DNA of 64,000 nt from Candidatus Iainarchaeum sp. (lineage in GTDB: Archaea > Iainarchaeota > Iainarchaeia > Iainarchaeales > JAGVWC01): NCBI GenBank assembly GCA_018304465.1, contig JAGVWC010000011.1:64001-128000 (forward strand), in the 5' to 3' direction. This document shows, piece after piece, positions 32,275 to 32,955 of this stretch (its first letter is position 1; every line of letters begins with the position of its first letter). A program made the translations under genes and the position numbers. The notes under the pieces are model-generated. The model was given only the letters and a program-made list of their open reading frames with translations. It made no database searches and was not told the origin of the DNA.

Positions 32275-32358
32275 GCTAATCAGCTTTTTTCCTGATTTTT
32301 GTTCCAGCGAATAAAGATGTCTTCCCAAAACAAGAACACGCTGCACGACTTTTTCGAC
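32275..32358 (-). repeat. scpA 3'-end repeat copy (WEDIFIRWNKNQEKS*) with a shared non-scpA arm
   Basis: Core matches scpA; 32320-32343 is identical to 53463-53486; the cacgctgcacg arm is shared with 54151-54161. Confidence 0.9.
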
Positions 32359-32443
32359 AAAAAAATAATTAGAATGGCCGAATTTGGTGCCGTAATTTGA
32401 ATAGTTTTTTATACAAGTCGCCGCACTATTAAATAGTGACATA

Positions 32444-32653
32444 ATGGTTAGTAATGAGCAGATTTTGCAGGGAAAAGCAATCAAAGAATTGGCTGAGGAA
32501 GCCGCCCGCGTAAAAGAAGGCTTGAAAGGATACTTAGAAGACTTGGAATTATACTCGAATCCTGAATTTTGGGAAGCAATCGCCGAAACCAACGAAAACA
32601 AAGGCAAAAAATTCGCTTCAACCAAAAAACTCTTCCAAGAGCTCGATAGCTGA
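32444..32653 (+). CDS. Putative antitoxin
   Basis: 69 aa, acidic, PEFWEAIAE..E.KGKKF; TGATG overlap with the toxin. Confidence 0.7.
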   Translation: MVSNEQILQGKAIKELAEEAARVKEGLKGYLEDLELYSNPEFWEAIAETNENKGKKFASTKKLFQELDS

Positions 32654-32901
32654 TGCCCTACTCTGTTTTTCGATCCGACAGGTTCAAAAAAGAATACAAA
32701 AAACTCGACGGTCGCCAACAACAATTAGTGAAAAAGAAAATCGACAAAATCGTCGAAAACCCCGAAGTCGGAAAACCCTTGCACGCGCCGTTGCAAAACT
32801 TCAAAAGCGAACGAATCGAAAACCTGCGAATCGTCTACACGATTGAAGGAACATTGATCAAATTCGCTTGGATCGAAGACCGCGGACACGCATACGATTA
32901 A
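32653..32901 (+). CDS. relE: RelE/ParE-family toxin
   Basis: FKKEYKKLD, NPEVGKPL, RIVYTI, RGHAY. Confidence 0.85.
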   Translation: MPYSVFRSDRFKKEYKKLDGRQQQLVKKKIDKIVENPEVGKPLHAPLQNFKSERIENLRIVYTIEGTLIKFAWIEDRGHAYD

Positions 32902-32912
32902 AATTGTGTATT

Positions 32913-32946
32913 AAACGCCTTTATCGTTAGAAATTGTTCTTGCCAC
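32913..32946 (-). repeat. scpA WQEQF half-site plus arm
   Basis: aattgttcttgcca is identical to scpA 33635-33648. Confidence 0.7.
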
Positions 32947-32955
32947 TTTGTGAAC

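Follow-up and report, generated by a model that had tools for sequence, protein, structure and literature searches.

The 64,000-nucleotide window analyzed here (positions 64001-128000 of contig C7; C-numbers denote assembly contigs) belongs to the 1.25-Mb, 15-contig genome of a DPANN archaeon, Candidatus Iainarchaeum sp. (G000 herein). The genome is 92% complete, and the archaeal marker families TrmB, DUF63, TYW2 and diphthine synthase in the window are consistent with its placement in the Iainarchaeia. On the minus strand of the window lies scpA, and behind it follows a row of copies of the scpA 3' end, between which sit single genes or toxin-antitoxin (TA) operons (array A, Table 1). One of these operons, TA1, is the subject of an earlier reading of this DNA from its letters alone, referred to as the original prediction.

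The ScpA protein ends in WQEQFWEDIFIRW, in agreement with the native ends of its relatives (WQEEF[FW]xEIF). Since the relatives' proteins end in the same way, the repeats derive from scpA and not the reverse. The repeat unit comprises the last ~78 nt of the gene, from TTGGCAAG, 15 nt before the boundary between an F and a W codon (junction J), to TTGGCTGA just past the stop codon. J divides it into a left half (L) and a right half (R).

At least 13 occurrences of the tail were found in the genome, with the right-hand copies on one strand only. A fuzzy search returned 11 right-half copies, 8 of them on C7 and 3 on C15, which without exception lie on the minus strand and start at TGGG, along with left halves at 33635, 32932, 30589, 55515 and C15:14934 and an inverted one at 25131. 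Copies at 31003-31040 and 53452-53470 and a possible copy at C15:104690 were added by a profile search, and an additional truncated copy lies at C15:13397. Four units are full (at scpA, 30602, 55528 and C15:14947); their likeness to scpA begins at TGGCAAG and not earlier, and all other copies begin exactly at TGGG. The left-hand copies that end at J in G000 comprise two clear ones and a degenerate one. The 14-mer TGGCAAGAACAATT is present three times in the window (33635, 32932 and, inverted, 25131) versus ~0.0005 occurrences expected from length alone. A defined recombination point at the F and W codons, as proposed in the original prediction, is borne out by the 11 right-hand copies that start there and the left-hand copies that end there.

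Direct repeats of the target 3' end (11 full-length or right-hand copies plus truncated ones) flank the inserted DNA, scpA itself is intact, and the tail copies keep the reading frame. Ten copies compared with scpA across their first 11 codons show 29 synonymous against 11 non-synonymous codon changes, and from this synonymous excess we conclude that the copies evolved as ScpA ends. The codon pattern argues that the tail copies are real alternative ScpA ends, which served or must be able to serve as such. A second scpA fragment considered upstream of the C15 unit was rejected, as its frame has a stop and no likeness extends beyond the unit.

Table 1. Positions of the repeat units, cassettes and genes of arrays A and B (L, left half; R, right half; R', tail copy carried by a cassette; J, junction; ORF, open reading frame; att, attachment)
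Feature	Position	Strand	Remarks
scpA, 268 amino acids, target gene	33586-34392	-	PF02616 SMC_ScpA, E 3.9e-16
Full att unit U0	33570-33648	-	L 33634-33648; J 33634/33633; R 33570-33633 including scpA stop; serves as reference for repeat families D1/D2 and the profile search
Cassette 1: R', ORF205 (32956-33573), arm ending in L1	32946-33633	-	ORF list; order matched in contig L018
Left half-site L1 (TGGCAAGAACAATT), ends at J	32932-32945	-	Exact 14-mer
TA1 cassette, 604 bp	32328-32931	-	Lies exactly between left half L1 and right half R1
TA1 "alt" arm	32902-32931		Part of TA1 cassette
TA1 RelE/ParE toxin	32653-32901	+	PF15781/PF05016 and phrog_1213, E 4e-13
TA1 antitoxin	32444-32653	+	Stop overlaps toxin start at 32653
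TA1 shared arm (P-arm)	32328-32443		Homologous to C15:12803-12925 and 53471-53520
Right half R1, starts at J, encodes WEDIFIRWNKNQEKS*	32255-32327	-	Pattern and profile search
ORF356, multi-helix-turn-helix-like cargo or element gene	31155-32225	-	Paralogues C15:5134-6185, C15:238503-239540
Degenerate unit U2: L-like 15-mer, "alt" arm, R tail	31004-31096	-	Profile search, E 0.0029
ORF124, cargo gene	30636-31010	-	67% identical paralogue within C15 array, C15:13503-13859
Full unit U3	30528-30602	-	L 30588-30602, R 30528-30587; E 2.9e-17
Three-gene segment: DUF4382 protein, GHL15-like 763-amino-acid protein, ORF383	25269-30451	-	Family search
Right half R4 (25165-25224), then inverted left half (25131-25144, +)	25131-25224	-	Pattern search
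ORF134 cassette (24675-25079) and last right half R5 (24575-24641, with TGA)	24575-25079	-	End of array A
Array B, secondary site	53452-55528	-	Pattern search; full unit 55454-55528 = 14-nt left half + full tail
Array B M29-like gene	54257-55438	+
Array B arm plus R	54082-54190		Pattern search
Array B TA2	antitoxin 53782-54030, toxin 53524-53781
Array B end	arm 53471-53520, then 19-nt R head 53452-53470

Cassettes, shared arms and secondary arrays

The original prediction held that TA1 splits one copy of the repeat into half-sites. The two pieces, TGGCAAGAACAATT at 32945-32932(-) and TGGGAAGAC at 32327-32319(-), were confirmed to the base, and in scpA they are contiguous at 33648-33625(-) with a C between them. 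The split structure stands as described; its proposed origin is less constrained, as an identical end product would follow from serial integration at scpA if the ORF205 cassette had supplied the 14-mer. TA1 is best described as one cassette with both borders at J, and from structure its entry into an internal copy is not distinguishable from entry into scpA before ORF205. Its left end is atypical in that it consists not of the scpA tail but of TCTAACGATAAAGGCGTTT, which recurs once, behind the degenerate left half at 31062. As the original prediction noted, this arm following WQEQ (TCTAAC.A.AAA..CGTTT) is repeated; genome-wide it stands at exactly two places, 32913 and 31062, both times behind left-half-like sequence. 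With the "alt" arm, the tail of ScpA would read ...WQEQFLTIKAFNTQF. Entry of TA1 into an internal full copy is attractive because with this "alt" tail ScpA would lose its conserved EDIF motif.

An assembly artefact as the source of the split structure was excluded by independent contigs. The 1.8-kb metagenome contig L018, from another data set, repeats the order of scpA, ORF205, left half and toxin, and both junctions of TA1 are spanned without difference by public contigs (X4 record 7, 32606-33631; X5 record 13, 30753-32693). In L018 (1210-1240, window 33210-33240), a 9-nt in-frame insertion in ORF205 (PTDFSDFSMDQ versus PRDFSMDQ) marks a strain difference. The 11 runs compared with the window consist of assembled contigs, which cannot reveal starts, circles or rare variants. 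A joint from 30587 to 32394 (20-nt side, in X4 and X5) at first resembled a deletion ending precisely at J. Because its 20-mer is also found at C15:12868, 66 nt from the C15:12802 copy, we attribute the joint to a contig from the paralogous C15 locus that was placed on the window. Loose contig ends lie near cassette borders at 24546, 24650, 29051 and 31125, and two of the consensus strings are absent from G000.

The arm on the other side of TA1, before the WED codons, proved to be a genuine shared cassette end of 25-125 nt at ~8 junctions, as had been claimed. Ahead of right-only copies it reads ...CTTCCGAAATCCGT..AAGTCGTGCAGCGTG..(10 nt) up to the TGGG, and it is recognizable at 32328, 53471, 54142, C15:13958, C15:13398, C15:12803, C7:10036 and C7:10650. 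The exact match of 32320-32343 to 53463-53486 holds at 24 of 24 positions, with identity stopping at both ends, and CACGCTGCACG occurs at 32337 and 54151 and nowhere else. The homology of the TA1 P-arm to C15:12803-12925 spans ~125 nt, yet no TA genes follow on C15. Other details of the original prediction fared less well. The "degenerate half-site" at 54090-54106 is weak, matching ~10-11 of 14-15 positions in our reading of the alignments. Nor do GTTCTTG of the arm and CAAGAAC of scpA share a register, since they end 3 nt and 5 nt before J, respectively, and GTTCTTG is found in only two of eight arms; a symmetry of these motifs around the junction is unproven.

From junction to junction, the units hold one gene or operon each and range from 560 to 1372 bp: ORF118 (560 bp), TA1 (604 bp), TA3 (~625 bp), TA2 (671 bp), a C15 methyltransferase (975 bp) and an M29-like gene (1372 bp). 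Three RelE/ParE pairs (TA1, TA2 and TA3) each abut an arm-tail junction, and the toxins of TA2 and TA3 match PF05016 with E values of 8e-9 and 6e-9. With a small toxin of the family and an adjoining small upstream partner, these pairs belong to the type II RelE/ParE modules. Counted from the gene lists, 11 of the 13 cassette genes or operons in the genome are co-oriented with scpA.

Secondary arrays are found in array B, at C7:10 kb and at C15:12.7-14.9 kb. Array B sits between the DUF357 gene and the gene at 55531, which are 31-73 nt apart in all three related loci that have both; in those loci, the block DHH, DUF357, dph5, DUF63, TYW2 lies a few kb upstream of scpA. Since array B is inserted between genes that adjoin elsewhere, att-like sites are used away from scpA too. 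Beside array B, the gene at 55531 is separated from the DHH gene by three ORFs without family matches (56128-56637, 56759-57148 and 57307-57780, within 56107-57730). The related loci L102 and L105 have the two genes side by side, which marks the ORFs as a second insertion, where no att copy turned up.

Other genomes of the order and recombinase genes

We compared 196 genomes of the order, this one included, and 80 scpA loci (L-numbers; G-numbers denote genomes), 72 of them with a complete gene end and the motif. Since the exact right-half pattern is present in only one of the 196 genomes, G000 itself, each related genome was searched with its own scpA tail. Across the 72 loci, copies of the 18-mer that begins at J turned up downstream on the same strand 13 times (30 per Mb), while the control compartments gave 1, 4 and 1 matches (1.8-7.3 per Mb). 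Right-only copies starting within 0-3 nt of J, here the homologous F and F codons, were found in L039 (two), L042 (two), L070, L083 and L088, and left-only copies ending at J in L070 (one clear, one weak) and L068. The five loci with right-only copies are those with clear arrays. Contigs end within 500 nt past the scpA stop in 9 of 72 loci versus ~3 of 80 that close before the gene (judged from match starts), which fits a variable region behind scpA.

The locus of G098 (L083) has four junctions that share one conserved 50-nt arm of a different sequence type (type B), found in 3 of 196 genomes, all of one family. Its cassettes carry a ParE/YoeB-like pair, a TA1-like pair (595 bp), HicA (560 bp) and, in a longer one, MazF. 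On contig C24 of G109, away from scpA, the type-B arm bounds a HicAB cassette and a 600-bp TA1-like cassette. The TA1-like cassettes of G098, behind scpA, and of G109 align junction to junction with unrelated flanks; in a by-eye reading, their ends are ~90% alike and their genes ~65-70%. TA1-like genes occur in 3 of the 80 scpA loci, each 1-1877 nt behind the scpA stop. At L033 (G089:C94, 1627-1792), a TA1-like toxin gene that is truncated at its 5' end and shows 74% identity over 54 residues stands right after the scpA stop, followed by the left-half-like AAAGTGGCAACATGACTTTC, a second ParE-like pair and then a right-half copy. A metagenome scan returned one same-strain contig only, and viral contigs gave no match to the R pattern, the type-A arm or the type-B junction that would mark free elements.

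Among the recombinase families searched, only tyrosine recombinases are detectable in G000; no resolvase or IS200-type transposase was found. On C6 stands a Xer-type gene interrupted by an intein; the other tyrosine recombinase genes are two long integrase genes that are intact (C7:680-2038 and C15:2593-4077) and a broken one on C13. The last (C13:90193-91286) is a copy of the C15 type, 46% identical, with two in-frame TGA codons. The C7 integrase (452 amino acids, in 680-2300) is directly preceded by a tRNA gene with an apparent intron-like insert, and this contig start is probably a separate tRNA-targeting element. Elsewhere in the order, a 481-amino-acid tyrosine integrase, belonging broadly to the family of the C15 integrase, starts 38 nt past the scpA stop in L066, beside a terminase gene, so integrases that use the scpA site plausibly exist. 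In G108 and in G109, which is 92% complete and has arrays at two loci, the sole PF00589 match is one ~295-amino-acid Xer-like protein.

Two further readings of the site were rejected. A dif-like site, defined in the available passages of PMC8371274 by 11-nt inverted arms and a 6-nt spacer, was looked for near J, where the best dyad was not above background. GC skew is negative on both sides of scpA with no sign change, which places the site away from the terminus, although this is a weak test in archaea. With neither dyad nor skew switch, the dif reading was dropped. Membership in the integrons was set aside as well, there being no intI with attI beside the array and no imperfect attC hairpins: eight units folded at -3.0 to -13.5 kcal/mol per 100 nt, seven of them with z between -1.8 and +1.3, and z fell below -2 only for scpA's own copy.

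How the array may have arisen

With moderate confidence, we favor serial site-specific integration at scpA of 0.56-1.4-kb cassettes that lack an integrase gene and depend on a tyrosine recombinase acting in trans. This explanation starts from what was observed: repeats with a common breakpoint, arms shared between junctions, tails under coding constraint and recurrence in other genomes. The scpA 3' end would be the chromosomal attachment site for a lineage-specific family of very small integrative cassettes. Judging from the anatomy, each cassette would run from J to the next J and comprise its own scpA-tail copy (R'), one gene or TA operon and a terminal P-arm, with no recombinase gene, and R' would replace the ScpA C-terminus upon insertion. 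The recombinase would exchange strands at or within a few bases of J, at the F and W codons. Every insertion would then shift earlier tails downstream, giving scpA-L/R'-cargo-P/R'-cargo-P/R..., where the slash is J. TA1 may be a cassette with a variant left arm that entered J of an att copy carrying a left half, either an internal copy, as in the original prediction, or scpA itself before the arrival of ORF205. The same reaction may also use the att-like sites of array B, C7:10 kb and C15:12.7-14.9 kb, and TA cargo would stabilize the array. The enzyme, a circular intermediate and present-day activity are inferred only; the recombinase might come from an integrase-bearing element such as that of L066, or be a resident enzyme. 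Of the attP-like site in the original prediction, the breakpoint J and the shared arm survive, whereas an arm-to-arm site in the free cassette finds no support. Most cassettes carry the arm plus a right-hand scpA copy as their site, and the arm-to-arm circle junction that it predicted is absent from the assembly.

Several observations weigh against this explanation. The window has no PF00589 match, and the arrays of G000 neither contain nor adjoin an integrase gene. One of the two intact non-Xer integrases stands beside a tRNA gene, and relatives of the other, the C15 integrase, are present in 72 of 196 genomes and adjoin scpA in none of the five checked. For the L066 element, no attR or second att copy was found within 39.7 kb. 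The best 11-6-11 dyad around J averages 6.89 of 11 positions, compared to a background of 6.65. The left-only junctions have at most 2-3 bases in common with the site, which is unusual for tyrosine recombinases, since these need 6-8 bp of identical overlap. The left arm of TA1, which unlike those of other cassettes is without an scpA tail, breaks the simple cassette rule. Of the 61 loci whose downstream sequence extends for at least 1 kb, only 5-6 show arrays. Lastly, the assembled contigs, where circles stay invisible, yielded neither a circle junction nor an empty site nor a clean presence/absence variant.

The main rival is a stack of fossils, which we regard as possible but doubtful: full-size proviruses or plasmids bearing integrases would have integrated serially at scpA and decayed to an att site plus addictive TA genes. 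J would then be the left edge of the attP/attB identity block and not the crossover, and left-only copies and secondary loci would stem from deletions and rearrangements. The full element with an integrase at scpA in L066 speaks for this, as do the paralogues of ORF356 and ORF124 near the C15 integrase and the arrays that are without any integrase. TA genes generally resist loss. Tandem integration, integrase loss and protein-gene targets are described for archaea in the available passages of PMC8371274, and a three-step route of decay and accretion for bacteria in those of PMC5704250. However, decay would repeatedly have to end in 560-670-bp units of one operon with both ends intact, and to do so in several genomes. 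In two genomes, one cassette occupies two different loci with the same junctions on either side and with ends better conserved than its genes, and left-only copies end exactly where right-only copies start, neither of which suits decay.

Two related accounts give the host a larger part. In one, which we hold to be unlikely, the scpA tail would be the entry site of an archaeal integron-like gene-capture platform built from different parts, where a resident recombinase, possibly the host XerA, inserts cassettes, shuffles them and copies them to secondary sites. Its cassettes of ~0.6 kb would carry a lineage-specific boundary module of ~130 nt (arm, substitute ScpA tail and leader), and TA cassettes would hold the array in place. 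The other, slightly less likely still, is host-driven capture that is integron-like or exploits Xer: a chromosomal recombinase (XerA or another resident enzyme) would shuffle cassettes at the scpA tail, with the tail as attI or dif and arm plus tail as attC. The single Xer-like protein of G108 and of G109, with its arrays at two loci, points this way, along with the predominant co-orientation with scpA and the cargo rich in TA modules. Junction modules are moreover kept within a lineage and differ between lineages (type A in one genome of 196, type B in three of one family), which recalls species-specific attC. Against host-driven capture, the units do not fold like attC, no 11-6-11 dyad at J rises above background, GC skew keeps its sign at scpA and a recombinase gene linked to the site is absent; besides, metagenome-assembled genomes can miss unbinned mobile elements that bear the integrase. 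It is very improbable that no site-specific process was at work and that segmental duplication, slippage or homologous recombination placed a TA module between the pieces by chance. While repeats of 60-78 nt could support homologous exchange and the arrays are co-oriented, the breakpoint is the same to the base in at least 11 copies here and in other genomes with different sequences, conserved arms unrelated to scpA accompany it, the cargo varies between repeats and the excess of copies lies downstream on the same strand only.

Under the favored reading of integrase-less cassettes, the closest known parallel is in bacteria. The available passages of PMC5704250, citing Pavlovic 2004 and Bellanger 2011, describe accretion of ICESt1/ICESt3 and of cis-mobilizable elements (CIMEs) at the fda 3' end in Streptococcus thermophilus. 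Like CIMEs as presented there, the scpA array targets the 3' end of a housekeeping gene with tandem elements split by att copies, and a lost integrase would be replaced by one from another element. The array also keeps attL/attR and has lost recombination and transfer genes. It differs from CIMEs in its 0.56-1.4-kb units of one gene each, in having neither transfer genes nor a genomic helper element, in its DPANN host and in its left-only junctions and secondary-site copies. Archaeal integrative elements with pNOB8-type or "classical" tyrosine integrases integrate in tandem and have attB in protein genes, according to the available passages of PMC8371274. They share with the scpA array direct repeats of the target 3' end, a rebuilt gene, tandem arrays and integrase-less remnants, but are kilobases long and normally have int, which the scpA cassettes lack; in the passages searched, "dpann" occurs 0 times and scpA is not named. 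As in the lambda paradigm, element DNA restores the target gene (scpA is intact); an integrase inside the element next to att is seen only in locus L066 and not in G000. The prophage e14 and phage 21 in icd of Escherichia coli reportedly supply their protein-gene target with a replacement 3' end whose differences are mostly synonymous. These are single prophages with their own integrase, whereas the scpA array is a stack of mini-cassettes.

Integrons and archaeal clusters of attC sites lacking an integrase (CALINs), as described in the main text available of Ghaly 2022 (PMC9668308), resemble the scpA array in their short, mostly co-oriented, recombinase-less cassettes, lineage-specific boundary repeats and frequent TA cassettes; "Iainarchae" occurs 0 times in that text. 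The scpA array is unlike integrons in that it has no adjoining intI and no attC-like hairpin, its site is derived from coding sequence and each cassette rebuilds the gene end. Tycheposon islands are said to be the tRNA-anchored counterpart of such stacks of small cassettes, which are free of integrase genes and each end in a copy of the target's 3' end. The anchor here is a protein gene, which puts the repeats under codon-level constraint. Our literature search found no paper naming scpA as an attachment site, nor one on such arrays in DPANN archaea, and the one listed paper that mentions scpA concerns Staphylococcus; the principle of accretion and cis-mobilizable elements is known, while the scpA target and the miniature form are not described.

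The genomes of DPANN archaea are tiny, and we know of no established routes by which they exchange genes. A 33-bp landing site with a mapped breakpoint and sub-kilobase cassettes would provide a concrete, testable mechanism for accessory-gene gain in this group. Since the site lies inside a protein gene, codon-level mimicry indicates that each cassette must supply a working ScpA end, and the tail copies keep an inherent record of earlier insertions. The short site and cassette pair would also be a candidate tool for archaeal genetics once its enzyme has been identified.

Neighboring genes

ORF205 of the first cassette has no family match in library searches. ORF356 encodes a basic protein of 356 amino acids with several helix-turn-helix-like stretches and no family match, and is present in three copies in the genome. 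It was found in 2 other genomes of the 196 and at 0 loci in the genome and viral collections. Its copy at C15:5134 adjoins an integrase and contains a TGA.

Upstream of scpA, ~16 kb separate it from TYW2 (34500-50500) and contain uvrC, uvrA, uvrB, a set of S-adenosylmethionine-cycle genes, MgtE/Nramp genes and adk. In ~40 of the 80 related loci, TYW2 lies at most 10 kb upstream of scpA and no uvr gene was seen. Near scpA, none of the 80 related loci has a homologue of the three-gene segment of array A (25269-30451). Within this segment, the N-terminal third of the GHL15-like protein (26626-28917) has numerous matches elsewhere in the genome, among them several at contig ends (C9:23276, C10:21684, C12:18457, C14:15050, C4:11339 and C7:151731), and is probably a repeat domain.

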